Assembly (NCBI GenBank): GCA_032718475.1 | Contig: JAUCBJ010001728.1 | Location: 1 to 64,000 of the forward strand | Source of the DNA: Nemertoderma westbladi | Lineage: Eukaryota; Animalia; Xenacoelomorpha | Direction: 5' to 3' | DNA: 64,000 nt | The notes under the pieces: generated by a model | The model's input: the letters and a program-made list of their open reading frames with translations, nothing else | What the model was told of the DNA's origin: nothing | Databases searched by the model: none | Program-made: the position numbers and the translations under genes | Part shown: positions 1-64,000 of the stretch, in pieces | Layout of the letters: each line of letters opens with the position of its first letter | How positions within the stretch are numbered: the first letter of the stretch is position 1

Positions 1-3000
1 TTAGTCGGTTAACCAAGCGATTAGCTAACCCTTTACCTATTTAGTCGGTTAACCAAGCGATTAGCTAACCCTTTACCTATTTAGTCGGTTACCCAAGCGA
101 TTAGCTAACCCTTTACCTATTTAGTCGGTTAACCAAGCGATTAGCTAACCCTTTACCTATTTAGTCGGTTAACCAAGCGATTAGCTAACCCTTTACCTAT
201 TTAGTCGGTTAACCAAGCGATTAGCTAACCCTTTACCTATTTAGTCGGTTAACCAAGCGATTAGCTAACCCTTTACCTATTTAGTCGGTTAACCAAGCGA
301 TTAGCTAACCCTTTACCTATTTAGTCGGTTAACCAAGCGATTAGCTAACCCTTTACCTATTTAGTCGGTTAACCAAGCGATTAGCTAACCCTTTACCTAT
401 TTAGTCGGTTAACCAAGCGATTAGCTAACCCTTTACCTATTTAGTCGGTTAACCAAGCGATTAGCTAACCCTTTACCTATTTAGTCGGTTAACCAAGCGA
501 TTAGCTAACCCTTTACCTATTTAGTCGGTTAACCAAGCGATTAGCTAACCCTTTACCTATTTAGTCGGTTAACCAAGCGATTAGCTAACCCTTTACCTAT
601 TTAGTCGGTTAACCAAGCGATTAGCTAACCCTTTACCTATTTAGTCGGTTAACCAAGCGATTAGCTAACCCTTTACCTATTTAGTCGGTTAACCAAGCGA
701 TTAGCTAACCCTTTACCTATTTAGTCGGTTAACCAAGCGATTAGCTAACCCTTTACCTATTTAGTCGGTTAACCAAGCGATTAGCTAACCCTTTACCTAT
801 TTAGTCGGTTAACCAAGCGATTAGCTAACCCTTTACCTATTTAGTCGGTTAACCAAGCGATTAGCTAACCCTTTACCTATTTAGTCGGTTAACCAAGCGA
901 TTAGCTAACCCTTTACCTATTTAGTCGGTTAACCAAGCGATTAGCTAACCCTTTACCTATTTAGTCGGTTAACCAAGCGATTAGCTAACCCTTTACCTAT
1001 TTAGTCGGTTAACCAAGCGATTAGCTAACCCTTTACCTATTTAGTCGGTTAACCAAGCGATTAGCTAACCCTTTACCTATTTAGTCGGTTAACCAAGCGA
1101 TTAGCTAACCCTTTACCTATTTAGTCGGTTAACCAAGCGATTAGCTAACCCTTTACCTATTTAGTCGGTTAACCAAGCGATTAGCTAACCCTTTACCTAT
1201 TTAGTCGGTTAACCAAGCGATTAGCTAACCCTTTACCTATTTAGTCGGTTAACCAAGCGATTAGCTAACCCTTTACCTATTTAGTCGGTTAACCAAGCGA
1301 TTAGCTAACCCTTTACCTATTTAGTCGGTTAACCAAGCGATTAGCTAACCCTTTACCTATTTAGTCGGTTAACCAAGCGATTAGCTAACCCTTTACCTAT
1401 TTAGTCGGTTAACCAAGCGATTAGCTAACCCTTTACCTATTTAGTCGGTTAACCAAGCGATTAGCTAACCCTTTACCTATTTAGTCGGTTAACCAAGCGA
1501 TTAGCTAACCCTTTACCTATTTAGTCGGTTAACCAAGCGATTAGCTAACCCTTTACCTATTTAGTCGGTTAACCAAGCGATTAGCTAACCCTTTACCTAT
1601 TTAGTCGGTTAACCAAGCGATTAGCTAACCCTTTACCTATTTAGTCGGTTAACCAAGCGATTAGCTAACCCTTTACCTATTTAGTCGGTTAACCAAGCGA
1701 TTAGCTAACCCTTTACCTATTTAGTCGGTTAACCAAGCGATTAGCTAACCCTTTACCTATTTAGTCGGTTAACCAAGCGATTAGCTAACCCTTTACCTAT
1801 TTAGTCGGTTAACCAAGCGATTAGCTAACCCTTTACCTATTTAGTCGGTTAACCAAGCGATTAGCTAACCCTTTACCTATTTAGTCGGTTAACCAAGCGA
1901 TTAGCTAACCCTTTACCTATTTAGTCGGTTAACCAAGCGATTAGCTAACCCTTTACCTATTTAGTCGGTTAACCAAGCGATTAGCTAACCCTTTACCTAT
2001 TTAGTCGGTTAACCAAGCGATTAGCTAACCCTTTACCTATTTAGTCGGTTAACCAAGCGATTAGCTAACCCTTTACCTATTTAGTCGGTTAACCAAGCGA
2101 TTAGCTAACCCTTTACCTATTTAGTCGGTTAACCAAGCGATTAGCTAACCCTTTACCTATTTAGTCGGTTAACCAAGCGATTAGCTAACCCTTTACCTAT
2201 TTAGTCGGTTAACCAAGCGATTAGCTAACCCTTTACCTATTTAGTCGGTTAACCAAGCGATTAGCTAACCCTTTACCTATTTAGTCGGTTAACCAAGCGA
2301 TTAGCTAACCCTTTACCTATTTAGTCGGTTAACCAAGCGATTAGCTAACCCTTTACCTATTTAGTCGGTTAACCAAGCGATTAGCTAACCCTTTACCTAT
2401 TTAGTCGGTTAACCAAGCGATTAGCTAACCCTTTACCTATTTAGTCGGTTAACCAAGCGATTAGCTAACCCTTTACCTATTTAGTCGGTTAACCAAGCGA
2501 TTAGCTAACCCTTTACCTATTTAGTCGGTTAACCAAGCGATTAGCTAACCCTTTACCTATTTAGTCGGTTAACCAAGCGATTAGCTAACCCTTTACCTAT
2601 TTAGTCGGTTAACCAAGCGATTAGCTAACCCTTTACCTATTTAGTCGGTTAACCAAGCGATTAGCTAACCCTTTACCTATTTAGTCGGTTAACCAAGCGA
2701 TTAGCTAACCCTTTACCTATTTAGTCGGTTAACCAAGCGATTAGCTAACCCTTTACCTATTTAGTCGGTTAACCAAGCGATTAGCTAACCCTTTACCTAT
2801 TTAGTCGGTTAACCAAGCGATTAGCTAACCCTTTACCTATTTAGTCGGTTAACCAAGCGATTAGCTAACCCTTTACCTATTTAGTCGGTTAACCAAGCGA
2901 TTAGCTAACCCTTTACCTATTTAGTCGGTTAACCAAGCGATTAGCTAACCCTTTACCTATTTAGTCGGTTAACCAAGCGATTAGCTAACCCTTTACCTAT

Positions 3001-3774
3001 TTAGTCGGTTAACCAAGCGATTAGCTAACCCTTTACCTATTTAGTCGGTTAACCAAGCGATTAGCTAACCCTTTACCTATTTAGTCGGTTAACCAAGCGA
3101 TTAGCTAACCCTTTACCTATTTAGTCGGTTAACCAAGCGATTAGCTAACCCTTTACCTATTTAGTCGGTTAACCAAGCGATTAGCTAACCCTTTACCTAT
3201 TTAGTCGGTTACACCCAAGCGATTAGCTAACCCTTTACCTATTTAGTCGGTTAACCAAGCGATTAGCTAACCCTTTACCTATTTAGTCGGTTAACCAAGC
3301 GATTAGCTAACCCTTTACCTATTTAGTCGGTTAACCAAGCGATTAGCTAACCCTTTACCTATTTAGTCGGTTAACCAAGCGATTAGCTAACCCTTTACCT
3401 ATTTAGTCGGTTAACCAAGCGATTAGCTATCCCTTTACCTATTTAGTCGGTTAACCAAGCGATTAGCTAACCCTTTACCTATTTAGTCGGTTAACCAAGC
3501 GATTAGCTAACCCTTTACCTATTTAGTCTGTTAATCAAGCGATTAGCTAACCCTTTACCTATTTAGTCGGTTAACCAAGCGATTAACTAACCCTTTACCT
3601 ATTTAGTCGGTTAACCAAGCGATTAGCTAACCCTTTACCTATTTAGTCGGTTAACCAAGCGATTAGCTAACCCTTTACCTATTTAGTCGGTTAACCAAGC
3701 GATTAGCTAACCCTTTACCTATTTAGTCGGTTAACCAAGCGATTAGCTAACCCTTTACCTATTTAGTCGGTTAA
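1..3774. repeat. 40-bp tandem repeat (satellite/minisatellite), unit TTAGTCGGTTAACCAAGCGATTAGCTAACCCTTTACCTAT, about 94 copies in window, truncated at left edge
   Basis: Direct inspection: exact 40-bp period. Copies are identical from ~121 to ~3210. Variants occur only near 92, 3211-3216 (net +1 nt), 3430, 3529/3535 and 3586. The last unit merges into the myosin exon at TTTAG|TCGGTTAA. Confidence 0.99.
3746..3766 (+). promoter_or_regulatory. 3' splice site of the myosin-I exon: branch point GCTAAC (branch A ~3750), pyrimidine tract CCCTTTACCTATTT, AG at 3765-3766
   Basis: Canonical branch point / polypyrimidine / YAG arrangement directly before the in-frame myosin codons TCG GTT AAT TCG GCG ATT CGC AAA (SVNSAIRK). 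The in-frame TAG at 3764-3766 closes the reading frame upstream, so the exon cannot extend further 5'. Confidence 0.85.
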
Positions 3775-4018
3775 TTCGGCGATTCGCAAAGACACCGACG
3801 ACCTTATCATCGGTGTTTTGGACATTTATGGGTTCGAAATATTTCAGAAGAACGGCTTCGAACAGTTCTGCATTAACTTTGTAAACGAAAAACTCCAGCA
3901 AATTTTTATTGAGTTGACTCTGAAGGCGGAACAAGAGGAATATGTTCAAGAAGGCATTAAATGGAAACCTATTGAATACTTTAATAACAAAGTTGTTTGT
4001 GACCTTATAGAAAACAAG
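3767..4018 (+). CDS. MYO1E: Internal coding exon (252 nt, 84 codons, phase 0-0) of an unconventional class I myosin, long-tailed MYO1E/MYO1F type; motor-domain switch II and relay helix
   Basis: Translates as [84 protein letters not shown]. This contains the myosin DIYGFE and [15 protein letters not shown] motifs and the class-I-specific [17 protein letters not shown] stretch, recalled as nearly identical to vertebrate MYO1E/F. Flanked by TTTAG| and AAG|GTGAGT. The symbol is best read as an MYO1E/F co-ortholog. Confidence 0.95.
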
Positions 4019-4024
4019 GTGAGT
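4016..4024 (+). promoter_or_regulatory. 5' splice donor AAG|GTGAGT
   Basis: Near-perfect U1 consensus. The reading frame hits TGA at 4025-4027 right after it, and myosin similarity ends here. Confidence 0.93.
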
Positions 4025-4187
4025 TGACATATGGAACACTTTAATCTATTCTAGACCACACCAACGGCATGTCATTGACACATAGTTAGTTTTCCAAGTT
4101 CCTTATATGGCTGTATTTAATGGCAGTGATTTTTTTTTATGTCCTTTTCTTTGACTTTTTTGTCCTTTTTTTTTACGAATTATGCAT

Positions 4188-4240
4188 AATGACTTTTGTT
4201 GTCCTTTTAATGACTTTTATTGTCCTTTTAATGACTTTTT
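4188..4240 (+). repeat. 21-bp subterminal tandem repeat (AATGACTTTTGTTGTCCTTTT) in left arm, about 2.5 copies
   Basis: Visible period of 21 nt. Mirrored at ~6162-6234 as the reverse complement with one more copy. Confidence 0.85.
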
Positions 4241-4480
4241 ATCTATGTATTTCTTCAAACTGTCAGACTGCTGATTTCTGGACAGTCAGACAGTTGATTT
4301 CACTATGCCTGTGCCAAAACATTCCATGATTCCATGATTTATAGACTATGAGATAGATTTCCATATGCGCCTGTGGTAAAAAGACTCTATATTTAATAGT
4401 TCGTGGTTGTTGTCGATAATCGATTACCACATGACGTAGCAAAACACTCATTTTATAGCCAAAAACAATTACCAATTGAT

Positions 4481-4925
4481 GGAAAGGAGCAGGTTAAGGC
4501 CGAGTTTTCTAACCAAAACAATAAACGATCACTTAACTAATTGAGGGAAAGGAGCAGGTTACAGAGGCGGGATTTTCTAACCAAAACAATAAACGATCAC
4601 TTAACTTATTGAGGGAAAGGAGCAGGTTACAGAGGCGGGATTTTCTAACCAATACAATAAACGATCATTTAACTAATTGAGGGAAAGGGACAGGTTACAG
4701 AGGCGGAATTTTCTAACCAAAACAATAAACGATCATTTAACTAATTGAGGGAAAGGGGCAGGTTACAGAGGCGGCATTTTCTAACCAAAACAATAAACGA
4801 TCATTTAACTAATTGAGGGAAAGGAGCAGGTTACAGAGACGGGAGTTTCTAACCAAAACAATAAACGATAACATTACCAATTGAGAGAAAGGAGCAGGTT
4901 ACAGCCCAGGCGTTGATTTCCTAAC
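4481..4925 (+). repeat. 68-bp tandem repeat in left arm of the foldback element, about 6.5 copies
   Basis: The AACCAA(A/T)AC anchor occurs at 4511, 4579, 4647, 4715, 4783 and 4851 (period 68). Unit approximately GGAAAGGAGCAGGTTACAGAGGCGGGATTTTCTAACCAAAACAATAAACGATCACTTAACTAATTGAG. Confidence 0.92.
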
Positions 4926-5246
4926 GCAATAATTTTTATTGTCCGTTTAAATCCTTTTTTTGTCCTTTTTTTTAATTTTTTATGTCCTCCAAAAATCTAA
5001 TGCCTTCCATGCTACCGGTTCCATGAATGGTTCCATGCTACCGGTTTCTCTACTGCTGTTCTCTCAGGCTATCAGTACCGGTATTAGTATATATAGCACT
5101 ATTTTGCTGTATTGTATGTACAGATGTAGGTATAAAGCAGGTATTTCTGTATTTTAGTACCGGTACCGGCACCGGTACTGCTGTGTAGGCCTACTGTGTA
5201 GCCTACCATTTAAATACGGTACTGGTAGGCCTAACGGCTGACCGGT

Positions 5247-5875
5247 TGTTTTGGTTAGAAAATTCCACCTCTGTAACCTGCTCATTTCCCCCGCCTCTGT
5301 AACCTGCTCCTTTCCCTCAATTAGTCAAGTGATCGTTTATTGTTTTGGTTAGGAAATCAACGCCTGGGCTGTAACCTGCTCCTTTCTCTCAATTGGTAAT
5401 GTTATCGTTTATTGTTTTGGTTAGAAAATACCGTCTCTGTAACCTGCTCCTTTCCCTGATTTGGTAAAGTGACTGTTTATTGTTTTGGTTAGAAAATCCC
5501 GCCTCTGTAACCTGCTCCTTTCCCTCAATTAGTTAAGTGATCGTTTATTGTTTTGGTTTGGAAATCCCGCCTCTGTAACCTGCTCCTTTCTCTCAATTGG
5601 TAATGTTATCGTTTATTGTTTTGGTTAGAAAATCCCGTCTCTGTAATCTGCTCCTTTCCCTGTTTTGGTAAAGTGACTGTTTATTGTTTTGGTTAGAAAA
5701 TCCTCCTCTGTAACCTGCTCCTTTCTCTCAATTGGTAATGTTATCGTTTATTGTTTTGGTTAGAAAATCCCGTCTCTGTAACCTGCTCCTTTCCCTGATT
5801 TGGTAAAGTGACTGTTTATTGTTTTGGTTAGAAAATCCGGCCTTAACCTGCTCCTTTCCTTCAATTGGTAATTGT
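5247..5875 (-). repeat. 68-bp tandem repeat in right arm of the foldback element (inverted), about 9 copies
   Basis: Reverse complement of the left-arm unit (TTGTTTTGGTTAGAAAATCCCGCCTCTGTAACCTGCTCCTTTCCC). Includes the inverted copy of the distinctive CAGCCCAGGCGTTGATTTCC variant at ~5352-5371. Confidence 0.92.
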
Positions 5876-6161
5876 TTTTGGCTATAAAATGAGTGTTTTG
5901 CTACGACATGTGGTAATCGATTATCGACAACAACCACAAACTATTAAATTTAGAGTCTTTTACAACAGGCGCATATGGAATTCTATCTCATAGTCTATAA
6001 ATCATGGAATCATGGAATGTTTTGGCACAGGCATAGTGAAACCAACTGTCCGACAGAACAGAAATCAACAAATTTTGAATGTTTTGGCATAGGCATGTTA
6101 AAATCAACTGTCTGACAGTCCAGAAATCAGCAGTCTGACAGTTTGAAGAAATACATACATA

Positions 6162-6234
6162 AAAAGTCATTAAAAGGACAACAAAAGTCATTAAAAGGAC
6201 AACAAAAGTCATTAAAAGGACAACAAAAGTCATT
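6162..6234 (-). repeat. 21-bp subterminal tandem repeat in right arm (AAAAGTCATTAAAAGGACAAC), about 3.5 copies
   Basis: Direct inspection; inverted counterpart of 4188-4240. Confidence 0.85.
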
Positions 6235-6360
6235 ATGCACAATTCGTAAAAAAAGGAGGACAAAAAAAGTCAAATAAAAGGACATAAAAAATCACTGCCT
6301 TTATTAAATTACAAAGTGACTCAGAATCTGCTGAATGCGGTTTGCTTGCTTAGATTCTTG

Positions 6361-6383
6361 CCCCCCACCCCCCCCCCCCCCCC
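6361..6383. repeat. Poly-C tract (C6-A-C16); G-run on the minus strand
   Basis: CCCCCCACCCCCCCCCCCCCCCC seen directly. Confidence 0.9.
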
Positions 6384-6604
6384 ACACTCATCCTTTCCAA
6401 TCCCCCTGCCACCAACTGCTGTAGCTGAACAATACTAACACTGCAATCGTTCTGCTGTTGTCATAGTATAGCCCACATTAGCATCATAATATACGTTCAA
6501 TTTGAGATACCATAAAGAAATAACTATATACGTTGGTGTTCACTTTATAGCACGGCATGCCGTTGCGGCACGAGTGATATTATCGTTTAATAACAAAACG
6601 AACT

Positions 6605-9600
6605 CATACATAGTAAATGTATGGAGTAGGGACCGAACGAGGGCATACATAGTAAATGTATGGAGTAGGGAAAGAACGTAGAGGCATTCATAGTAAATGT
6701 ATGGAGTAGGGAAAGAAGAACGTAGAGGCATTCATAGTAAATGTATGGAGTAGGGAAAGAACGTAGAGGCATTCATAGTAAATGTATGGAGGAGGGAATG
6801 AAGATCGTAGAGGCATTCATAGTAAATGTTTGGAGGAGGGAAAGAACGTAGAGGCATTCATAGTAAATGTATGGAGTAGGGAATGAAGATCGTAGAGGCA
6901 TTCATAGTAAATGTATGGAGGAGGGAAAGAACGTAGAGGCATTCATAGTAAATGTATGGAGGAGGGAAAGAACGTAGAGGCATTCATAGTAAATGTATGG
7001 AGTAGGGAAGAAGATCGTAGAGGCATTCATAGTAAATGTATGGAGTAGGGAAAGAACGTAGAGGCATTCATAGTAAATGTATGGAGTAGGGAGAGAACGT
7101 AGAGGCATTCATAGTAAATGTATGGAGGAGGGAAAGAACGTAGAGGCATTCATAGTAAATGTATGGAGTAGGGAAAGAACGTAGAGGCATTCATAGTAAA
7201 TGTATGGAGTAGGGAAAGAACGTAGAGGCATTCATAGTAAATGTATGGAGTAGGGAAAGAACGTAGAGGCATTCATAGTAAATGTATGGAGTAGGGAGAG
7301 AACGTAGAGGCATTCATAGTAAATGTATGGAGGAGGGAAAGAACGTAGAGGCATTCATAGTAAATGTATGGAGTAGGGAAAGAACGTAGAGGCATTCATA
7401 GTAAATGTATGGAGTAGGGAGAGAACGTAGAGGCATTCATAGTAAATGTATGGAGGAGGGAAAGAACGTAGAGGCATTCATAGTAAATGTATGGAGTAGG
7501 GAGAGAACGTAGAGGCATTCATAGTAAATGTATGGAGGAGGGAAAGAACGTAGAGGCATTCATAGTAAATGTATGGAGTAGGGAAAGAACGTAGAGGAAT
7601 TCATAGTAAATGTTTGGAGTAGGGAGAGAACGTAGAGGCATTCATAGTAAATGTATGGAGTAGGGAATGAAGAACGTAGAGGCATTCATAGTAAATGTAT
7701 GGAGGAGGGAGAGAACGTAGAGGCATTCATAGTAAATGTATGGAGTAGGGAATGAAGAACGTAGAGGCATTCATAGTAAATGTATGGAGGAGGGAGAGAA
7801 CGTAGAGGCATTCATAGTAAATGTATGGAGTAGGGAAAGAACGTAGAGGCATTCATAGTAAATGTTTGGAGGAGGGAATGAAGATCGTAGAGGCATTCAT
7901 AGTAAATGTATGGAGTAGGGAAAGAACGTAGAGGCATTCATAGTAAATGTATGGAGGAGGGAAAGAACGTAGAGGCATTCATAGTAAATGTATGGAGGAG
8001 GGAATGAAGAACGTAGAGGCATTCATAGTAAATGTATGGAGTAGGGAAAGAACGTAGAGGCATTCATAGTAAATGTATGGAGGAGGGAAAGAACGTAGAG
8101 GCATTCATAGTAAATGTATGGAGTAGGGAAAGAACGTAGAGGCATTCATAGTAAATGTATGGAGTAGGGAAAGAACGTAGAGGCATTCATAGTAAATGTA
8201 TGGAGTAGGGAAGGAAGATCGTAGAGGCATTCATAGTAAATGTATGGAGTAGGGAAAGAACGTAGAGGCATTCATAGTAAATGTATGGAGGAGGGAAAGA
8301 ACGTAGAGGCATTCATAGTAAATGTATGGAGGAGGGAATGAAGAACGTAGAGGCATTCATAGTAAATGTATGGAGTAGGGAAAGAACGTAGAGGCATTCA
8401 TAGTAAATGTATGGAGGAGGGAAAGAACGTAGAGGCATTCATAGTAAATGTATGGAGGAGGGAATGAAGAACGTAGAGGCATTCATAGTAAATGTATGGA
8501 GTAGGGAAAGAACGTAGAGGCATTCATAGTAAATGTATGGAGGAGGGAAAGAACGTAGAGGCATTCATAGTAAATGTATGGAGTAGGGAAAGAACGTAGA
8601 GGCATTCATAGTAAATGTATGGAGTAGGGAAAGAACGTAGAGGCATTCATAGTAAATGTATGGAGTAGGGAAAGAACGTAGAGGCATTCATAGTAAATGT
8701 ATGGAGTAGGGAAGGAACGTAGAGGCATTCATAGTAAATGTATGGAGTAGGGAATGAAGAACGTAGAGGCATTCATAGTAAATGTATGGAGGAGGGAGAG
8801 AACGTAGAGGCATTCATAGTAAATGTATGGAGTAGGGAAAGAACGTAGAGGCATTCATAGTAAATGTTTGGAGGAGGGAATGAAGATCGTAGAGGCATTC
8901 ATAGTAAATGTATGGAGTAGGGAAAGAACGTAGAGGCATTCATAGTAAATGTATGGAGGAGGGAAAGAACGTAGAGGCATTCATAGTAAATGTATGGAGG
9001 AGGGAATGAAGAACGTAGAGGCATTCATAGTAAATGTATGGAGTAGGGAAAGAACGTAGAGGCATTCATAGTAAATGTATGGAGGAGGGAAAGAACGTAG
9101 AGGCATTCATAGTAAATGTATGGAGTAGGGAAAGAACGTAGAGGCATTCATAGTAAATGTATGGAGTAGGGAAAGAACGTAGAGGCATTCATAGTAAATG
9201 TATGGAGTAGGGAAAGAACGTAGAGGCATTCATAGTAAATGTATGGAGTAGGGAAGGAACGTAGAGGCATTCATAGTAAATGTATGGAGGAGGAAGAGAA
9301 CGTAGAGGCATTCATAGTAAATGTATGGAGGAGGGAATGAAGAACGTAGAGGCATTCATAATAAATGTATGGAGGAGGGAAAGAACGTAGAGGCATTCAT
9401 AGTAAATGTATGGAGTAGGGAAAGAACGTAGAGGCATTCATAGTAAATGTATGGAGTAGGGAATGAAGATCGTAGAGGCATTCATAGTAAATGTATGGAG
9501 TAGGGAAGGAACGTAGAGGCATTCATAGTAAATGTATGGAGGAGGAAGAGAACGTAGAGGCATTCATAGTAAATGAGTAGGGAGAGAACGTAGAGGCATT

Positions 9601-12600
9601 CATAGTAAATGTATGGAGGAGGGAATGAAGAACGTAGAGGCATTCATAGTAAATGTATGGAGGAGGGAATGAAGATCGTAGAGGCATTCATAGTAAATGT
9701 ATGGAGTAGGGAAAGAACGTAGAGGCATTCATAGTAAATGTATGGAGTAGGGAAAGATCGTAGAGGCATTCATAGTAAATGTATGGAGTAGGGACGGAGC
9801 GTAGAGGCATTCATAGTAAATGTATGGAGGAGGGAATGAAGATCGTAGAGGCATTCATAGTAAATGTATGGAGGAGGGAATGAAGAACGTAGAGGCATTC
9901 ATAGTAAATGTATGGAGTAGGGAAAGATCGTAGAGGCATTCATAGTAAATGTATGGAGGAGGGAATGAAGATCGTAGAGGCATTCATAGTAAATGTATGG
10001 AGTAGGGAAAGAACGTAGAGGCATTCATAGTAAATGTATGGAGTAGGGAAGGAAGATCGTAGAGGCATTCATAGTAAATGTATGGAGTAGGGAAAGAACG
10101 TAGAGGCATTCATAGTAAATGTATGGAGGAGGGAAAGAACGTAGAGGCATTCATAGTAAATGTATGGAGGAGGGAATGAAGAACGTAGAGGCATTCATAG
10201 TAAATGTATGGAGTAGGGAAAGAACGTAGAGGCATTCATAGTAAATGTATGGAGGAGGGAAAGAACGTAGAGGCATTCATAGTAAATGTATGGAGGAGGG
10301 AAAGAAGATCGTAGAGGCATTCATAGTAAATGTATGGAGTAGGGAAAGAACGTAGAGGCATTCATAGTAAATGTATGGAGTAGGGAAGGAAGATCGTAGA
10401 GGCATTCATAGTAAATGTATGGAGTAGGGAAAGAACGTAGAGGCATTCATAGTAAATGTATGGAGTAGGGAAGGAAGATCGTAGAGGCATTCATAGTAAA
10501 TGTATGGAGTAGGGAAAGAACGTAGAGGCATTCATAGTAAATGTATGGAGTAGGGAAGGAAGATCGTAGAGGCATTCATAGTAAATGTATGGAGGAGGGA
10601 ATGAAGATCGTAGAGGCATTCATAGTAAATGTATGGAGTAGGGAAAGAACGTAGAGGCATTCATAGTAAATGTATGGAGTAGGGAAGGAAGATCGTAGAG
10701 GCATTCATAGTAAATGTATGGAGTAGGGAAAGAACGTAGAGGCATTCATAGTAAATGTATGGAGGAGGGAAAGAACGTAGAGGCATTCATAGTAAATGTA
10801 TGGAGGAGGGAATGAAGAACGTAGAGGCATTCATAGTAAATGTATGGAGTAGGGAAAGAACGTAGAGGCATTCATAGTAAATGTATGGAGGAGGGAAAGA
10901 ACGTAGAGGCATTCATAGTAAATGTATGGAGGAGGGAATGAAGAACGTAGAGGCATTCATAGTAAATGTATGGAGTAGGGAAAGAACGTAGAGGCATTCA
11001 TAGTAAATGTATGGAGGAGGGAAAGAACGTAGAGGCATTCATAGTAAATGTATGGAGTAGGGAAAGAACGTAGAGGCATTCATAGTAAATGTATGGAGTA
11101 GGGAAAGAACGTAGAGGCATTCATAGTAAATGTATGGAGTAGGGAAAGAACGTAGAGGCATTCATAGTAAATGTATGGAGTAGGGAAGGAACGTAGAGGC
11201 ATTCATAGTAAATGTATGGAGTAGGGAATGAAGAACGTAGAGGCATTCATAGTAAATGTATGGAGGAGGGAGAGAACGTAGAGGCATTCATAGTAAATGT
11301 ATGGAGTAGGGAAAGAACGTAGAGGCATTCATAGTAAATGTTTGGAGGAGGGAATGAAGATCGTAGAGGCATTCATAGTAAATGTATGGAGTAGGGAAAG
11401 AACGTAGAGGCATTCATAGTAAATGTATGGAGGAGGGAAAGAACGTAGAGGCATTCATAGTAAATGTATGGAGGAGGGAATGAAGAACGTAGAGGCATTC
11501 ATAGTAAATGTATGGAGTAGGGAAAGAACGTAGAGGCATTCATAGTAAATGTATGGAGGAGGGAAAGAACGTAGAGGCATTCATAGTAAATGTATGGAGT
11601 AGGGAAAGAACGTAGAGGCATTCATAGTAAATGTATGGAGTAGGGAAAGAACGTAGAGGCATTCATAGTAAATGTATGGAGTAGGGAAAGAACGTAGAGG
11701 CATTCATAGTAAATGTATGGAGTAGGGAAGGAACGTAGAGGCATTCATAGTAAATGTATGGAGGAGGAAGAGAACGTAGAGGCATTCATAGTAAATGTAT
11801 GGAGGAGGGAATGAAGAACGTAGAGGCATTCATAATAAATGTATGGAGGAGGGAAAGAACGTAGAGGCATTCATAGTAAATGTATGGAGTAGGGAAAGAA
11901 CGTAGAGGCATTCATAGTAAATGTATGGAGTAGGGAATGAAGATCGTAGAGGCATTCATAGTAAATGTATGGAGTAGGGAAGGAACGTAGAGGCATTCAT
12001 AGTAAATGTATGGAGGAGGGAATGAAGAACGTAGAGGCATTCATAGTAAATGTATGGAGGAGGGAATGAAGATCGTAGAGGCATTCATAGTAAATGTATG
12101 GAGTAGGGAAAGAACGTAGAGGCATTCATAGTAAATGTATGGAGTAGGGAAGGAACGTAGAGGCATTCATAGTAAATGTATGGAGGAGGGAATGAAGATC
12201 GTAGAGGCATTCATAGTAAATGTATGGAGTAGGGAAAGAACGTAGAGGCATTCATAGTAAATGTATGGAGTAGGGAAAGAACGTAGAGGCATTCATAGTA
12301 AATGTATGGAGTAGGGAGAGAACGTAGAGGCATTCATAGTAAATGTATGGAGTAGGGAAGGAACGTAGAGGCATTCATAGTAAATGTATGGAGTAGGGAA
12401 GGAACGTAGAGGCATTCATAGTAAATGTATGGAGGAGGGAATGAAGAACGTAGAGGCATTCATAGTAAATGTATGGAGGAGGGAATGAAGATCGTAGAGG
12501 CATTCATAGTAAATGTATGGAGTAGGGAAAGAACGTAGAGGCATTCATAGTAAATGTATGGAGTAGGGAAGGAACGTAGAGGCATTCATAGTAAATGTAT

Positions 12601-15600
12601 GGAGGAGGGAATGAAGATCGTAGAGGCATTCATAGTAAATGTATGGAGTAGGGAAAGAACGTAGAGGCATTCATAGTAAATGAGTAGGGACGGAACGTAG
12701 AGGCATTCATAGTAAATGTATGGAGTAGGGACGGAACGTAGAGGCATTCATAGTAAATGTATGGAGGAGGGAATGAAGAACGTAGAGGCATTCATAGTAA
12801 ATGTATGGAGTAGGGAAGGAACGTAGAGGCATTCATAGTAAATGTATGGAGTAGGGAGAGAACGTAGAGGCATTCATAGTAAATGTATGGAGTAGGGAGA
12901 GAACGTAGAGGCATTCATAGTAAATGTATGGAGTAGGGAAGGAACGTAGAGGCATTCATAGTAAATGTATGGAGTAGGGAAGGAACGTAGAGGCATTCAT
13001 AGTAAATGTATGGAGGAGGGAATGAAGAACGTAGAGGCATTCATAGTAAATGTATGGAGGAGGGAATGAAGATCGTAGAGGCATTCATAGTAAATGTATG
13101 GAGGAGGGAATGAAGATCGTAGAGGCATTCATAGTAAATGTATGGAGTAGGGAAAGAACGTAGAGGCATTCATAGTAAATGTATGGAGTAGGGAAGGAAC
13201 GTAGAGGCATTCATAGTAAATGTATGGAGGAGGGAATGAAGATCGTAGAGGCATTCATAGTAAATGAGTAGGGACGGAACGTAGAGGCATTCATAGTAAA
13301 TGTATGGAGTAGGGAAGGAACGTAGAGGCATTCATAGTAAATGTATGGAGTAGGGAGAGAACGTAGAGGCATTCATAGTAAATGAGTAGGGACGGAACGT
13401 AGAGGCATTCATAGTAAATGTATGGAGTAGGGAAGGAACGTAGAGGCATTCATAGTAAATGTATGGAGTAGGGAGAGAACGTAGAGGCATTCATAGTAAA
13501 TGTATGGAGTAGGGAAAGAACGTAGAGGCATTCATAGTAAATGTATGGAGTAGGGAAGGAACGTAGAGGCATTCATAGTAAATGTATGGAGGAGGGAATG
13601 AAGATCGTAGAGGCATTCATAGTAAATGAGTAGGGACGGAACGTAGAGGCATTCATAGTAAATGTATGGAGTAGGGAAGGAACGTAGAGGCATTCATAGT
13701 AAATGTATGGAGTAGGGAGAGAACGTAGAGGCATTCATAGTAAATGAGTAGGGACGGAACGTAGAGGCATTCATAGTAAATGTATGGAGTAGGGAAGGAA
13801 CGTAGAGGCATTCATAGTAAATGTATGGAGTAGGGAGAGAACGTAGAGGCATTCATAGTAAATGAGTAGGGACGGAACGTAGAGGCATTCATAGTAAATG
13901 TATGGAGTAGGGAAGGAACGTAGAGGCATTCATAGTAAATGTATGGAGTAGGGAAGGAACGTAGAGGCATTCATAGTAAATGAGTAGGGACGGAACGTAG
14001 AGGCATTCATAGTAAATGTATGGAGTAGGGAAGGAACGTAGAGGCATTCATAGTAAATGTATGGAGTAGGGAGAGAACGTAGAGGCATTCATAGTAAATG
14101 TATGGAGTAGGGAGAGAACGTAGAGGCATTCATAGTAAATGTATGGAGTAGGGAAGGAACGTAGAGGCATTCATAGTAAATGTATGGAGTAGGGAAGGAA
14201 CGTAGAGGCATTCATAGTAAATGTATGGAGGAGGGAATGAAGAACGTAGAGGCATTCATAGTAAATGTATGGAGGAGGGAATGAAGATCGTAGAGGCATT
14301 CATAGTAAATGTATGGAGTAGGGAAGGAACGTAGAGGCATTCATAGTAAATGTATGGAGTAGGGAGAGAACGTAGAGGCATTCATAGTAAATGTATGGAG
14401 TAGGGAGAGAACGTAGAGGCATTCATAGTAAATGTATGGAGTAGGGAAGGAACGTAGAGGCATTCATAGTAAATGTATGGAGTAGGGAAGGAACGTAGAG
14501 GCATTCATAGTAAATGTATGGAGGAGGGAATGAAGAACGTAGAGGCATTCATAGTAAATGTATGGAGGAGGGAATGAAGATCGTAGAGGCATTCATAGTA
14601 AATGTATGGAGTAGGGAAAGAACGTAGAGGCATTCATAGTAAATGTATGGAGTAGGGAAGGAACGTAGAGGCATTCATAGTAAATGTATGGAGGAGGGAA
14701 TGAAGATCGTAGAGGCATTCATAGTAAATGTATGGAGTAGGGAAAGAACGTAGAGGCATTCATAGTAAATGTATGGAGTAGGGAAAGAACGTAGAGGCAT
14801 TCATAGTAAATGAGTAGGGACGGAACGTAGAGGCATTCATAGTAAATGAGTAGGGACGGAACGTAGAGGCATTCATAGTAAATGTATGGAGTAGGGAAAG
14901 AACGTAGAGGCATTCATAGTAAATGTATGGAGTAGGGAAAGAACGTAGAGGCATTCATAGTAAATGAGTAGGGACGGAACGTAGAGGCATTCATAGTAAA
15001 TGAGTAGGGACGGAACGTAGAGGCATTCATAGTAAATGAGTAGGGACGGAACGTAGAGGCATTCATAGTAAATGAGTAGGGACGGAACGTAGAGGCATTC
15101 ATAGTAAATGTATGGAGTAGGGAAAGAACGTAGAGGCATTCATAGTAAATGTATGGAGTAGGGAAAGAACGTAGAGGCATTCATAGTAAATGAGTAGGGA
15201 CGGAACGTAGAGGCATTCATAGTAAATGAGTAGGGACGGAACGTAGAGGCATTCATAGTAAATGTATGGAGTAGGGAAAGAACGTAGAGGCATTCATAGT
15301 AAATGTATGGAGTAGGGAGAGAACGTAGAGGCATTCATAGTAAATGTATGGAGTAGGGAAAGAACGTAGAGGCATTCATAGTAAATGTATGGAGGAGGGA
15401 AAGAACGTAGAGGCATTCATAGTAAATGTATGGAGTAGGGAAAGAACGTAGAGGCATTCATAGTAAATGTATGGAGTAGGGAAAGAACGTAGAGGCATTC
15501 ATAGTAAATGTATGGAGTAGGGAAAGAACGTAGAGGCATTCATAGTAAATGTATGGAGTAGGGAAAGAACGTAGAGGCATTCATAGTAAATGTATGGAGT

Positions 15601-18600
15601 AGGGACGGAACGTAGAGGCATTCATAGTAAATGTATGGAGGAGGGAAAGAAGAACGTAGAGGCATTCATAGTAAATGTATGGAGTAGGGAAAGAACGTAG
15701 AGGCATTCATAGTAAATGTATGGAGGAGGGAATGAAGAACGTAGAGGCATTCATAGTAAATGTATGGAGTAGGGAAAGAACGTAGAGGCATTCATAGTAA
15801 ATGTATGGAGTAGGGAAAGAACGTAGAGGCATTCATAGTAAATGTATGGAGGAGGGAATGAAGAACGTAGAGGCATTCATAGTAAATGTATGGAGTAGGG
15901 AAAGAACGTAGAGGCATTCATAGTAAATGTATGGAGGAGGGAATGAAGAACGTAGAGGCATTCATAGTAAATGTATGGAGTAGGGAAAGAACGTAGAGGC
16001 ATTCATAGTAAATGTATGGAGTAGGGAAAGAACGTAGAGGCATTCATAGTAAATGTATGGAGTAGGGAAAGAACGTAGAGGCATTCATAGTAAATGAGTA
16101 GGGAAAGAACGTAGAGGCATTCATAGTAAATGTATGGAGTAGGGAAAGAACGTAGAGGCATTCATAGTAAATGAGTAGGGAAAGAACGTAGAGGCATTCA
16201 TAGTAAATGTATGGAGTAGGGAAAGAACGTAGAGGCATTCATAGTAAATGTATGGAGGAGGGAAAGAAGAACGTAGAGGCATTCATAGTAAATGTATGGA
16301 GGAGGGAAAGAACGTAGAGGCATTCATAGTAAATGTATGGAGTAGGGAAAGAACGTAGAGGCATTCATAGTAAATGTATGGAGTAGGGAGAGAACGTAGA
16401 GGCATTCATAGTAAATGTATGGAGTAGGGAGAGAACGTAGAGGCATTCATAGTAAATGTATGGAGTAGGGAGAGAACGTAGAGGCATTCATAGTAAATGT
16501 ATGGAGTAGGGAAAGAACGTAGAGGCATTCATAGTAAATGTATGGAGGAGGGAAAGAAGAACGTAGAGGCATTCATAGTAAATGTATGGAGGAGGGAAAG
16601 AACGTAGAGGCATTCATAGTAAATGTATGGAGTAGGGAAAGAACGTAGAGGCATTCATAGTAAATGAGTAGGGACGGAACGTAGAGGCATTCATAGTAAA
16701 TGTATGGAGTAGGGAAAGAACGTAGAGGCATTCATAGTAAATGTATGGAGGAGGGAAAGAACGTAGAGGCATTCATAGTAAATGTATGGAGTAGGGAAAG
16801 AACGTAGAGGCATTCATAGTAAATGAGTAGGGACGGAACGTAGAGGCATTCATAGTAAATGTATGGAGTAGGGACGGAACGTAGAGGCATTCATAGTAAA
16901 TGTATGGAGGAGGGAGAGAACGTAGAGGCATTCATAGTAAATGTATGGAGTAGGGAAAGAACGTAGAGGCATTCATAGTAAATGAGTAGGGACGGAACGT
17001 AGAGGCATTCATAGTAAATGTATGGAGTAGGGAATGAAGAACGTAGAGGCATTCATAGTAAATGTATGGAGTAGGGACGGAACGTAGAGGCATTCATAGT
17101 AAATGTATGGAGGAGGGAATGAAGAACGTAGAGGCATTCATAGTAAATGTATGGAGTAGGGACGGAACGTAGAGGCATTCATAGTAAATGAGTAGGGACG
17201 GAACGTAGAGGCATTCATAGTAAATGTATGGAGGAGGGAAAGAACGTAGAGGCATTCATAGTAAATGAGTAGGGACGGAACGTAGAGGCATTCATAGTAA
17301 ATGTATGGAGGAGGGAAAGAACGTAGAGGCATTCATAGTAAATGTATGGAGTAGGGAAAGAACGTAGAGGCATTCATAGTAAATGTATGGAGTAGGGACG
17401 GAACGTAGAGGCATTCATAGTAAATGTATGGAGTAGGGAAAGAACGTAGAGGCATTCATAGTAAATGTATGGAGTAGGGAAAGATCGTAGAGGCATTCAT
17501 AGTAAATGTATGGAGTAGGGAAAGAACGTAGAGGCATTCATAGTAAATGTATGGAGTAGGGAAAGAACGTAGAGGCATTCATAGTAAATGTATGGAGTAG
17601 GGAAAGAACGTAGAGGCATTCATAGTAAATGTATGGAGTAGGGAAAGAACGTAGAGGCATTCATAGTAAATGTATGGAGTAGGGAAAGAACGTAGAGGCA
17701 TTCATAGTAAATGTATGGAGTAGGGACGGAACGTAGAGGCATTCATAGTAAATGTATGGAGTAGGGAAAGAACGTAGAGGCATTCATAGTAAATGTATGG
17801 AGTAGGGAAAGATCGTAGAGGCATTCATAGTAAATGTATGGAGGAGGGAAAGAACGTAGAGGCATTCATAGTAAATGAGTAGGGACGGAACGTAGAGGCA
17901 TTCATAGTAAATGTATGGAGTAGGGACGGAACGTAGAGGCATTCATAGTAAATGTATGGAGTAGGGACGGAACGTAGAGGCATTCATAGTAAATGAGTAG
18001 GGACGGAACGTAGAGGCATTCATAGTAAATGTATGGAGTAGGGACGGAACGTAGAGGCATTCATAGTAAATGTATGGAGTAGGGACGGAACGTAGAGGCA
18101 TTCATAGTAAATGTATGGAGTAGGGACGGAACGTAGAGGCATTCATAGTAAATGTATGGAGTAGGGAAAGAACGTAGAGGCATTCATAGTAAATGTATGG
18201 AGTAGGGAAAGATCGTAGAGGCATTCATAGTAAATGTATGGAGGAGGGAAAGAACGTAGAGGCATTCATAGTAAATGTATGGAGTAGGGAAAGATCGTAG
18301 AGGCATTCATAGTAAATGTATGGAGTAGGGACGGAACGTAGAGGCATTCATAGTAAATGTATGGAGTAGGGAAAGAACGTAGAGGCATTCATAGTAAATG
18401 TATGGAGTAGGGAAAGAACGTAGAGGCATTCATAGTAAATGTATGGAGTAGGGAAAGAACGTAGAGGCATTCATAGTAAATGTATGGAGTAGGGAAAGAA
18501 CGTAGAGGCATTCATAGTAAATGTATGGAGTAGGGAAAGAACGTAGAGGCATTCATAGTAAATGTATGGAGTAGGGAAAGAACGTAGAGGCATTCATAGT

Positions 18601-21600
18601 AAATGTATGGAGTAGGGAAAGAACGTAGAGGCATTCATAGTAAATGTATGGAGTAGGGAAAGAACGTAGAGGCATTCATAGTAAATGTATGGAGTAGGGA
18701 AAGAACGTAGAGGCATTCATAGTAAATGTATGGAGTAGGGACGGAACGTAGAGGCATTCATAGTAAATGTATGGAGTAGGGAAAGAACGTAGAGGCATTC
18801 ATAGTAAATGTATGGAGTAGGGAAAGAACGTAGAGGCATTCATAGTAAATGTATGGAGTAGGGAAAGAACGTAGAGGCATTCATAGTAAATGTATGGAGT
18901 AGGGAAAGAACGTAGAGGCATTCATAGTAAATGTATGGAGTAGGGAAAGAACGTAGAGGCATTCATAGTAAATGTATGGAGTAGGGAAAGAACGTAGAGG
19001 CATTCATAGTAAATGTATGGAGTAGGGAAAGAACGTAGAGGCATTCATAGTAAATGTATGGAGTAGGGAAAGAACGTAGAGGCATTCATAGTAAATGTAT
19101 GGAGTAGGGAAAGAACGTAGAGGCATTCATAGTAAATGTATGGAGTAGGGAAAGAACGTAGAGGCATTCATAGTAAATGAGTAGGGACGGAACGTAGAGG
19201 CATTCATAGTAAATGTATGGAGGAGGGAATGAAGATCGTAGAGGCATTCATAGTAAATGTATGGAGTAGGGAAAGAACGTAGAGGCATTCATAGTAAATG
19301 TATGGAGGAGGGAATGAAGAACGTAGAGGCATTCATAGTAAATGTATGGAGTAGGGACGGAACGTAGAGGCATTCATAGTAAATGTATGGAGGAGGGAAT
19401 GAAGAACGTAGAGGCATTCATAGTAAATGTATGGAGTAGGGAATGAAGAACGTAGAGGCATTCATAGTAAATGTATGGAGTAGGGAAAGAACGTAGAGGC
19501 ATTCATAGTAAATGTATGGAGTAGGGACGGAACGTAGAGGCATTCATAGTAAATGTATGGAGGAGGGAATGAAGAACGTAGAGGCATTCATAGTAAATGT
19601 ATGGAGTAGGGAATGAAGAACGTAGAGGCATTCATAGTAAATGTATGGAGTAGGGAAAGAACGTAGAGGCATTCATAGTAAATGTATGGAGTAGGGACGG
19701 AACGTAGAGGCATTCATAGTAAATGTATGGAGTAGGGAGAGAACGTAGAGGCATTCATAGTAAATGTATGGAGTAGGGAAAGAACGTAGAGGCATTCATA
19801 GTAAATGTATGGAGTAGGGAAAGAACGTAGAGGCATTCATAGTAAATGTATGGAGTAGGGAAAGAACGTAGAGGCATTCATAGTAAATGTATGGAGTAGG
19901 GAAAGAACGTAGAGGCATTCATAGTAAATGTATGGAGTAGGGAAAGAACGTAGAGGCATTCATAGTAAATGTATGGAGTAGGGAAAGAACGTAGAGGCAT
20001 TCATAGTAAATGTATGGAGTAGGGAAAGAACGTAGAGGCATTCATAGTAAATGTATGGAGTAGGGACGGAACGTAGAGGCATTCATAGTAAATGTATGGA
20101 GTAGGGAAAGAACGTAGAGGAATTCATAGTAAATGTATGGAGGAGGGAATGAAGATCGTAGAGGCATTCATAGTAAATGTATGGAGGAGGGAATGAAGAT
20201 CGTAGAGGCATTCATAGTAAATGTATGGAGTAGGGACGGAACGTAGAGGCATTCATAGTAAATGTATGGAGTAGGGAAAGAACGTAGAGGAATTCATAGT
20301 AAATGTATGGAGGAGGGAATGAAGATCGTAGAGGCATTCATAGTAAATGTATGGAGGAGGGAATGAAGATCGTAGAGGCATTCATAGTAAATGTATGGAG
20401 TAGGGAAAGATCGTAGAGGCATTCATAGTAAATGTATGGAGGAGGGAAAGAACGTAGAGGCATTCATAGTAAATGTATGGAGTAGGGAAAGAACGTAGAG
20501 GCATTCATAGTAAATGTATGGAGTAGGGAAAGAACGTAGAGGCATTCATAGTAAATGTATGGAGTAGGGAAAGAACGTAGAGGCATTCATAGTAAATGTA
20601 TGGAGTAGGGAAAGAACGTAGAGGCATTCATAGTAAATGTATGGAGTAGGGAAAGAACGTAGAGGCATTCATAGTAAATGTATGGAGTAGGGACGGAACG
20701 TAGAGGCATTCATAGTAAATGTATGGAGTAGGGAGAGAACGTAGAGGCATTCATAGTAAATGTATGGAGGAGGGAATGAAGAACGTAGAGGCATTCATAG
20801 TAAATGTATGGAGTAGGGACGGAACGTAGAGGCATTCATAGTAAATGTATGGAGTAGGGACGGAACGTAGAGGCATTCATAGTAAATGTATGGAGTAGGG
20901 ACGGAACGTAGAGGCATTCATAGTAAATGTATGGAGTAGGGAAAGAACGTAGAGGAATTCATAGTAAATGTATGGAGGAGGGAATGAAGAACGTAGAGGC
21001 ATTCATAGTAAATGTATGGAGTAGGGACGGAACGTAGAGGCATTCATAGTAAATGTATGGAGTAGGGAAAGAACGTAGAGGCATTCATAGTAAATGTATG
21101 GAGTAGGGAAAGAACGTAGAGGCATTCATAGTAAATGTATGGAGTAGGGAAAGAACGTAGAGGCATTCATAGTAAATGTATGGAGTAGGGAAAGAACGTA
21201 GAGGCATTCATAGTAAATGTATGGAGTAGGGACGGAACGTAGAGGCATTCATAGTAAATGTATGGAGTAGGGAAAGAACGTAGAGGCATTCATAGTAAAT
21301 GTATGGAGGAGGGAAAGAACGTAGAGGCATTCATAGTAAATGTATGGAGGAGGGAATGAAGATCGTAGAGGCATTCATAGTAAATGTATGGAGTAGGGAC
21401 GGAACGTAGAGGCATTCATAGTAAATGTATGGAGTAGGGAAAGAACGTAGAGGAATTCATAGTAAATGTATGGAGGAGGGAATGAAGAACGTAGAGGCAT
21501 TCATAGTAAATGTATGGAGTAGGGACGGAACGTAGAGGCATTCATAGTAAATGTATGGAGTAGGGAAAGAACGTAGAGGCATTCATAGTAAATGTATGGA

Positions 21601-63600: not shown

Positions 63601-64000
63601 CATAGTAAATGTATGGAGGAGGGAAAGAACGTAGAGGCATTCATAGTAAATGTATGGAGGAGGGAAAGATCGTAGAGGCATTCATAGTAAATGTATGGAG
63701 GAGGGAATGAAGATCGTAGAGGCATTCATAGTAAATGTATGGAGTAGGGAAAGAACGTAGAGGCATTCATAGTAAATGTATGGAGGAGGGAATGAAGATC
63801 GTAGAGGCATTCATAGTAAATGTATGGAGGAGGGAAAGAACGTAGAGGCATTCATAGTAAATGTATGGAGGAGGGAAAGAACGTAGAGGCATTCATAGTA
63901 AATGTATGGAGTAGGGAAAGAACGTAGAGGCATTCATAGTAAATGTATGGAGGAGGGAATGAAGATCGTAGAGGCATTCATAGTAAATGTATGGAGGAGG
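6605..64000. repeat. 41-bp purine-rich satellite array, consensus CATAGTAAATGTATGGAG(T/G)AGGGAAAGAACGTAGAGGCATT, with 36-bp and 44-bp length variants; roughly 1,400 units, truncated at right edge
   Basis: Uninterrupted head-to-tail array with a near-invariant core CGTAGAGGCATTCATAGTAAATG. The variable part comprises GAGT/GAGG, then AAAGAA, AGAGAA, ACGGAA, ACGGAG, AAGGAA, AAAGAT, AATGAAGA(A/T), AAAGAAGA(A/T) or AAGGAAGA(A/T), plus a 5-bp deletion variant AAATGAGTAGGG. The copy number is estimated as length divided by ~41.7. Confidence 0.99.

Follow-up and report, generated by a model that had tools for sequence, protein, structure and literature searches.

The myosin exon and its predicted splice sites

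The window analyzed here is a stretch of 64,000 nucleotides of contig JAUCBJ010001728.1 from Nemertoderma westbladi, in which a single myosin exon lies between repeats. A tblastn search with 10 of the homologues detected no other myosin exon in these 64 kb. The following features were recognized (strand is given where one was assigned):

1..3766, + strand: 40-bp tandem array of intron-end/exon-start units with 94 upstream TAG acceptors, open at the left edge of the window
3727..3766, + strand: last decoy unit and nearest competitor (AG 3725-3726); splicing to it would produce a frameshifted exon of 292 nt with the reading SVNQAIS-stop
3745..3766, + strand: predicted real acceptor, the intronic half of the terminal unit (CTAAC 3747-3751, short pyrimidine tract, AG 3765-3766)
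3767..3790, + strand: start of the exon, as repeated in the unit (14/18 over 3767-3784, 18/24 to 3790)
3767..4018, + strand: exon of 252 nt, phase 0 at both ends, from a long-tailed class-I myosin, IE/IF type (SVNSAIRK...DIYGFE...DLIENK)
4019..4024, + strand: 5' splice site GTGAGT (AAG/GTGAGT, 9/9 to MAG/GTRAGT)
4120..6300 (approximate): foldback-like element in the next intron, a long inverted repeat whose two arms each carry 68-bp and 21-bp tandem repeats
6605..64000: unrelated 41/44-bp satellite of about 1,378 copies, running to the window end

The exon has an open frame and matches the Pfam Myosin_head domain (PF00063, E 1.9e-37). Its best PDB matches are class I myosins and its named top protein matches are myosin IE/IF (mostly 83-92%); judged by such similarity, it is a segment of a myosin motor, with the DIYGFE motif, closest to myosin IE/IF. 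All 65 near-invariant columns, assessed in 118 of the 120 homologues, are kept by the exon, a comparison that is partly circular because the homologues were chosen by similarity. No identical full-length protein was present among the 120 matches listed (best 92%), and residues S4 and I14 of the exon occur in none of the 118 homologues.

The boundaries proposed in a first-pass annotation of this DNA agree with the sequence on both sides. An open and in-frame exon follows just two of the 283 AGs up to 3830, namely those giving starts at 3767 (phase 0) and 3792 (phase 1), so that 3767 is the sole phase-0 acceptor opening it; use of 3792 would drop SVNSAIRK. The branch point is presumably A 3750, at -17, as assigned from the branch-point consensus. 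At the other end, the proposed GTGAGT donor after a 252-nt exon is the only site scoring at least 6/9 to the donor consensus in 3767-4060. A tblastn extension upstream of the exon (LYLFSRL vs LYSRL) lay in a different frame, was interrupted by stops, and was treated as a chance match.

Related loci were compared among the best 80 of at least 515 confirmed matches, and were printed if they had a DIYGFE-like motif and enough flank. No close relative was found among these 80, the best being 86% identical on a segment. In a distant relative, a genomic myosin-IE-like locus (L073) carries an acceptor, cag/ATA GTC AAC (IVNKAM), at the codon homologous to 3767, and it is the only one to do so among the printed loci of the best 80 of at least 515; most other fetched loci of this set have contiguous coding sequence at that codon. 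TRF found no repeat at the L073 acceptor. In addition, a partial gene model (P0121) begins at the same codon as the exon. Four genomic ORFs (P0122, P0123, P0125, and P0132) read E(S/C)K and then continue into unrelated sequence starting with V, as expected if the donor position is the same as that of the exon. A tree of the exon and 22 hand-picked fetched homologues (23 rows, 84 columns) did not place the exon, so that the resemblance of its SVNxAIRKD start to tunicates gives no more than a hint.

An array built from the intron/exon junction

TRF described the array as a repeat of period 40 over 1-3774 with 94.3 copies and 99% matches; the true copy number must be higher, as the array is cut by the left window edge. 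Each unit consists of 22 nt of intron end followed by 18 nt of exon start, and the junction TTAG/TC occurs 95 times, 94 times upstream and finally at AG 3765-3766. A 26-nt junction pattern gave 94 matches at up to three mismatches, compared with none in 100 shuffles. Within the 64-kb window the 40-bp unit is confined to 23-3770; a Rfam search of 1-9000 gave no match, and an exact 23-nt junction pattern had no match among metagenome contigs.

The complete 40-bp units are highly uniform (89 of 94 identical, with 77 perfectly identical units in the longest run). Variant units begin at 85, 3205 (with 2 additional nt), 3407, 3527, and 3567, four of the five falling within the last 15 of 94 units (P 0.002 for an interval picked post hoc). 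The 22-nt block from the branch-point-like CTAAC to TAG is the same in 92 of the 95 junctions, including the last one; the three deviating blocks are cut by the window edge, contain CTATC (before 3447), or start with AACTAAC (before 3607). The block is thus unchanged in 91 of the 94 decoys, and all 94 keep TAG. At least 93 identical decoys had been claimed: there are indeed 94 decoy AGs, but identity extends over the 22 nt in 91 of them and, by arithmetic from the unit and block counts, from -22 to +8 in 88.

Downstream of the junction, the unit reads AACCAAGCG vs AATTCGGCG in the real exon. The 14/18 in-register match to the exon start was reproduced (binomial P about 6e-6). Its four mismatches are contiguous at 3775-3778, and before them the terminal acceptor is, as had been proposed, an array unit with an identical 22-nt block. 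The exonic half of the unit encodes S-V-N-Q-A-I, in which the Asn and the Ala are each found in 118 homologue rows; retention of these two conserved residues indicates that the repeat came from a coding junction, and the origin of the array from the intron/exon boundary, suggested earlier, is upheld by the composition of the unit.

Decoy acceptors and premature stops

A stop is reached from all 94 decoy acceptors, as the first-pass annotation had stated, but its reading SVNQAIS-stop applies to 90 of them; the other four read SVTQAIS-stop, SVNQAIN-stop, SVTPKRLANPLPI-stop, and SVNQAISYPFTYLVG-stop. These stops had been regarded as a sign of design, a view that did not survive comparison with shuffled 40-nt units ending in TAG: all 20,000 of 20,000 met a stop within three units (9,329 within 13 codons), and the decoy stops therefore need no design. 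Predicted exons from the nearest decoys would measure 292, 332, and 372 nt.

Recursive-splicing (ratchet) sites require AG/GT, an acceptor directly followed by a donor that regenerates the 5' splice site. The array junction is AG/TC, and all scored GTs in the array reach 4/9 to the donor consensus; since the array has no usable donor, the stepwise splicing ladder suggested earlier is not supported. Predicted RNA structure was rejected as a selector of the acceptor, as branch-point accessibility was not different at the real site (0.08 vs 0.02-0.46 at seven decoys). As a crude enhancer proxy, GAA occurs 12 times in the exon vs 0 times in 252 nt of array.

Comparison with known junction duplications

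The array had been treated as new; however, junction-spanning minisatellites have already been described in amphioxus as 'mirages', in Adh3, the globins BflGb6 and BflGb9, troponin C, and PGBD5, and are reported not to disturb splicing (PMC3087553, PMC3902484). Mirage units measure 10-160 bp in the cases described, many of them keep AG/GT signals, and the clusters evolve in concert with divergent edges (PMC3087553; an alignment of acceptor-side units is given in its Additional file 4 and may be relevant to this comparison). The myosin array corresponds to them in several respects. Both are tandem duplications of an intron/exon boundary, and the 40-bp head-to-tail unit lies within the 10-160 bp range (PMC3087553). 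The unit spans a boundary common to L073 and P0121, with the authentic junction at the array end, and splice signals are kept throughout (TAG in 94/94). The cluster is homogenized with a less uniform boundary: at the right edge, the visible one, the terminal unit has its 4-nt difference, and the clustering of variant units nearby is the edge pattern of mirages (PMC3087553). The BflGb6 mirage has the same configuration, joining an intron 3' end to the 5' part of an exon. The differences are in scale and uniformity, with at least 94 copies vs 3 and 6 in BflGb6 and 2-7 in PGBD5, and 89/94 identical units vs 81-100% identity in mirages (PMC3087553, PMC3902484). Normal splicing and length variation have been demonstrated for the amphioxus mirages. 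A literature search by titles and abstract openings, with subscription papers mostly beyond reach, returned no acceptor array of roughly 100 copies.

Three human systems are also relevant. In the 37-bp VNTR of F7 IVS7 (five to nine copies), the end unit is likewise the real junction, and the authentic site alone is used although the identical pseudo-sites are functional (PMC1557585); that array is on the donor side with the authentic site most upstream, whereas the myosin array is on the acceptor side with the predicted site most downstream. In CBS 844ins68, the 3' splice site of an intron/exon junction is duplicated, and the distal acceptor is used (PMC1802585); it has two copies, and G runs between the sites promote the distal choice, whereas the myosin unit has no G runs. 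The exon 8/intron 8 duplication of FGG, in which a second splice site likewise leads to premature stops, produces aberrant transcripts and disease; it is a single 403-bp pathogenic duplication on the donor side and a counter-example to tolerance (PMC9052919).

Origin of the array and choice of the acceptor

Taken together, the locus is probably a mirage-type minisatellite across the junction; splicing likely uses the last copy only, and the array is likely tolerated clutter rather than a switch. It may have started from a single tandem duplication of the intron/exon junction, possibly primed by GC.AA microhomology that the end of the intron shares with exon bases 3786-3790, with later expansion and homogenization through slippage or unequal exchange. 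New copies are upstream of the coding junction and therefore fall in the intron. Because intron sequence extends for at least 3.8 kb before the exon and at least 60 kb after it, recognition must presumably proceed by exon definition. The last acceptor would be favored because it adjoins the full purine-rich exon and is nearest to the strong donor, and far decoy copies would be excluded; leakage, most likely to the last one or two decoys, would yield transcripts with a premature stop, which NMD is expected to eliminate. Bypass of the decoys by exon definition, as proposed in the first-pass annotation, is thus the likeliest mechanism, but exon size does not discriminate against the nearest decoys (292, 332, and 372 nt). 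On the other side, a scanning model for 3' sites would favor an upstream copy, as would globin duplication experiments in which the proximal copy was used (PMC1557585 Discussion).

The next intron bears on the question of tolerance. Its satellite extends over more than 57 kb, with 53 unit variants resolved across 57 kb, contains no myosin exon, and has no acceptor-like sites on the + strand (searched over 6605..64000). The idea that it might be a mirage of the next exon was rejected, as there was neither a next-exon match nor an acceptor-like site on that strand. Because this neighboring satellite is unrelated, the array is most likely a tolerated by-product of general repeat expansion.

Among the alternatives, it is unlikely that the exon represents a dead or stranded piece of myosin (a pseudo-exon or part of a pseudogene) for which acceptor choice is irrelevant and next to which the array grew free of selection. 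Its isolation in 64 kb between satellites, the absence of an identical full-length protein among the 120 matches listed, and the unmatched S4 and I14 fit such a fragment; nevertheless, the open frame, the canonical splice sites at positions common to other species, and the intact near-invariant columns (65/65) argue against it.

A working attenuator appears slightly less probable. A measurable share of transcripts would splice to decoys and enter NMD, or exon inclusion would be slowed or impaired, and copy number would tune myosin-IE output. Such a role is compatible with the acceptor block shared by 91 decoys and the real site, the stops met from all 94, the ordinary exon sizes from the nearest decoys, a predicted structure that masks decoys no more than the real site, and the corruption of splicing by the FGG duplication (PMC9052919). 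On the other hand, stops are unavoidable in such units, splicing is normal in the mirages described and with the F7 VNTR (PMC3087553, PMC3902484, PMC1557585), and the next intron, with its giant satellite of unrelated sequence, speaks for general repeat growth. If exon definition rules, array length should also matter little, because copies at the far end alter only distant acceptors. An NMD-coupled rheostat, in which decoys one to a few units upstream compete, a real share of myosin-IE transcripts is lost to stop-containing exons extended by 40n, and length or terminal variants set the dose of a haplotype, is regarded as equally improbable.

It is a little less probable still that the array is partly a product of assembly, the real locus having fewer or more varied copies that were over-extended or flattened into a consensus. 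The run of 77 identical units and a mirage mis-assembled in the amphioxus draft (PMC3087553) would be consistent with this, but the five variant units are distinct and clustered at the edge, and the second satellite has its variants resolved as an accurate long-read assembly would be expected to do. Finally, the many AG and branch-point-like motifs spaced by 40 nt might lend themselves to a ladder of recursive splicing or to a sponge that binds SF1, U2AF, or U2 snRNP, but such a role is very improbable given the AG/TC junctions, the 4/9 GTs, and the presumably small share of about 100 sites in one pre-mRNA compared with the intron pool of the cell.

Implications

This type of array is already known from the mirages of lancelets, and the locus adds one more gene and one more animal. 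It illustrates how a conserved motor exon may be lodged between satellites of several kilobases or more, one of which is built from the exon's own acceptor. The array also offers a natural ruler for 3' splice-site choice, with about 90 acceptors at 40-nt spacing that share the sequence from -22 to +8 and differ solely in their distance to the donor and in the sequence past +8. Junction counts along the array, in the presence and absence of NMD, would directly reveal how strictly exon definition prevails over first-AG scanning. If leakage or copy-number effects are true, the array would be a splicing dial controlled by a satellite.

Array composition

The array upstream of the myosin exon holds up as a genuine acceptor-side mirage of a myosin-IE/IF gene, large in size and unusually uniform. 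Its 40-bp unit, combining 22 nt of intron end with 18 nt of exon start, is repeated up to 3774 in 94.3 copies (99% matches), a lower bound since the repeat is already running at the left edge of the window and extends past it. Phased on TTAG^TC (caret, splice junction), it contains 95 junctions, 94 upstream and the last at AG 3765-3766, and 89 of the 94 complete units are identical, with 77 in the longest identical run.

Variant units of the array
starts 85, 3205, 3407, 3527 and 3567, forward strand: variant 40-bp units

Of the 95 junctions, 92, the last one included, carry exactly the same 22-nt block AGCTAACCCTTTACCTATTTAG; one of the other three is truncated by the window edge, one lacks CTAAC and one starts AACTAAC. 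A search with a 26-nt junction pattern gave 94 matches in the window and none in 100 shuffles. The first-pass annotation had counted at least 93 identical decoys, which is correct in kind and slightly high in number: by arithmetic on the unit and junction tallies, the 22-nt block is common to 91 decoys, and positions -22 to +8 are identical in 88. The decoy block at 3425-3446 (before acceptor 3447) has lost its CTAAC motif and reads CTATC, and that at 3585-3606 (before acceptor 3607) is nearer to TACTAAC and reads TAACTAAC. These two decoys could act as internal controls when counting junctions.

The myosin exon

The open frame at 3767-4018 (252 nt) hits Pfam Myosin_head (E 1.9e-37), its best solved relatives being class-I myosins and its best named ones myosin IE/IF, and is closed by a donor, AAG^GTGAGT, that agrees with the consensus at 9/9 positions. 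Up to 3830 there are 283 AGs, and just two of them would open an in-frame exon, at 3767 (phase 0) and 3792 (phase 1), as each one upstream is out of frame or hits TAG at 3764-3766; the earlier proposal that the exon needs 3767 is thus borne out by its being the sole open phase-0 choice. Use of 3792 would lose SVNSAIRK, a conserved stretch (SVN[NT]AIRKD in ascidians). An acceptor at the same codon as 3767 (cag^ATA GTC AAC) was found in L073, a distant genomic myosin-IE-like locus and one of the best 80 of 515 loci, in most others of which the coding sequence is contiguous there; a partial frog gene model also begins at this codon. L073 has an additional intron within the segment that forms one exon in the window. 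Four genomic ORFs depart from myosin directly after E(S/C)K, with valine, as predicted by a shared GT donor.

That the exon behind so many decoys is dead appears improbable; it keeps 65 of 65 near-invariant columns, a result that is partly circular because the homologues (118 of 120 listed, two divergent proteins having been removed) were picked by similarity. The relatives suggest that the host is an animal, and an 84-column tree of 23 rows, with 22 hand-picked homologues, did not narrow this down.

Acceptor choice

If live, the exon is flanked by introns of at least 3.8 kb on one side and at least 60 kb on the other. Exons between long introns are recognized through exon definition, and since tblastn with 10 homologues detected no further myosin exons in the window, this one would have to be recognized in that way. 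The scored GTs inside the array match the donor consensus at only 4/9 positions and offer no donor, so the only partner left for a decoy would be the donor at 4019, and the resulting exons would measure 252+40n nt. Exon definition therefore likely disposes of the distant decoys, while the nearest remain, at 292, 332 and 372 nt. Predicted RNA structure showed no preference for the real site over seven decoys (branch-point accessibility 0.08 versus 0.02-0.46). What sets the real acceptor apart is how close it lies to the donor, together with the exon body that follows it, in which GAA, a crude enhancer proxy, occurs 12 times, with none in an array stretch of 252 nt. Splicing would probably pick the last acceptor, and leaked decoy products would be cleared by NMD.

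The array is probably tolerated. An NMD-coupled attenuator is slightly more doubtful even than a dead exon. The stops are no sign of design: when units were shuffled with TAG kept at the end, all 20,000 of 20,000 ran into a stop within three units, and 9,329 did so within 13 codons. An assembly effect has a slightly poorer chance again; four of the five variant units fall within the final 15 (post hoc P 0.002), as expected if homogenization spares array edges. Very improbable, and the weakest of these readings, is the suggested ladder or sponge, the stepwise ladder failing because recursive splicing requires AG^GT, whereas the junction reads AG^TC and the array has only its 4/9 GTs.

Origin of the repeat

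The second half of the unit matches the exon start in register at 14/18 positions (P about 6e-6; 18/24 over a longer stretch), whereas elsewhere, whether in the exon or in the next intron, it reaches 11-12/18 at best; this upholds the earlier view that the array arose by amplification of the intron/exon junction. Translated, this half reads SVNQAI and so retains Asn3 and Ala5, both near-invariant; the four mismatches form one block, 3775-3778, made up of the silent base of codon 3 plus codon 4, which is variable. Together, these features argue that the coding junction was the source of the repeat and was not invaded by it. At codon 4 the unit has Gln where the exon has Ser; among 118 close homologues, Ser occurs in none and Gln in one (P0024). 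The contiguous mismatch block suggests a single event, and the partial unit/exon match reaching 3790 points to possible microhomology at the first duplication.

Neighbouring repeats

Repeats in the next intron (forward-strand coordinates)
about 4120-6300: foldback-like element
4187-4239 and 6162-6235: 21-bp repeats near the outer ends of the foldback arms
4474-4904 and 5290-5871: 68-bp tandem repeats, one set per arm
6605-64000: 41/44-bp satellite, unrelated to the array; begins within the intron downstream of the myosin exon and extends beyond the window

The foldback-like element has long inverted arms that align without gaps over up to 356 nt at 90%; in the pre-mRNA it could fold into a 2-kb hairpin located some 100 nt past the donor. 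The satellite comprises about 1,378 copies over more than 57 kb, and the 1,361 units that were parsed fall into 53 variants, a 36-bp deletion unit occurring 35 times; it is purine-rich on the plus strand (GC skew about 0.63), where it contains no acceptor-like sites, and its extension past the window implies an intron of at least 60 kb. This neighbourhood of foldback element and unrelated satellite points to general repeat growth. Between the two lies a C-rich run at 6362-6385, with about 22 C among its 24 nt; the minus strand there is G-rich. The introns of L073 carry short tandem repeats of 35 and 23 bp at positions 878-946, 1841-1922 and 2119-2189 of that locus, the 35-bp pair beginning about 12 nt past a donor.

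Relation to known junction duplications

Tandem repeats across intron/exon boundaries have been described in amphioxus as mirages: the BflGb6 unit joins an intron 3' end to an exon 5' part in 3 and 6 units, AG/GT is kept in many units, RT-PCR suggests normal splicing, and clusters differ in length, with boundaries that escape homogenization (PMC3087553). Other cases include PGBD5, Adh and troponin C (PMC3902484). The myosin array shares all four sequence-level features in the account of PMC3087553, and its 94.3 copies in the window are far above the 3 and 6 units of BflGb6 and the 2-7 of PGBD5. Human F7 IVS7, a donor-side analogue of this acceptor-side array, has five to nine identical sites, of which the authentic one alone is reported to be used (PMC1557585). 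In CBS 844ins68, the 3' splice site is duplicated and the distal one selected with the help of G runs (PMC1802585); another account says only that an alternative site is created (PMC4296076). Use of the proximal copy in globin duplication experiments, as told in PMC1557585, and a pathogenic FGG junction duplication (PMC9052919) count against automatic tolerance. The acceptor-side mirage is a kind already known, to which the myosin-IE/IF case adds.
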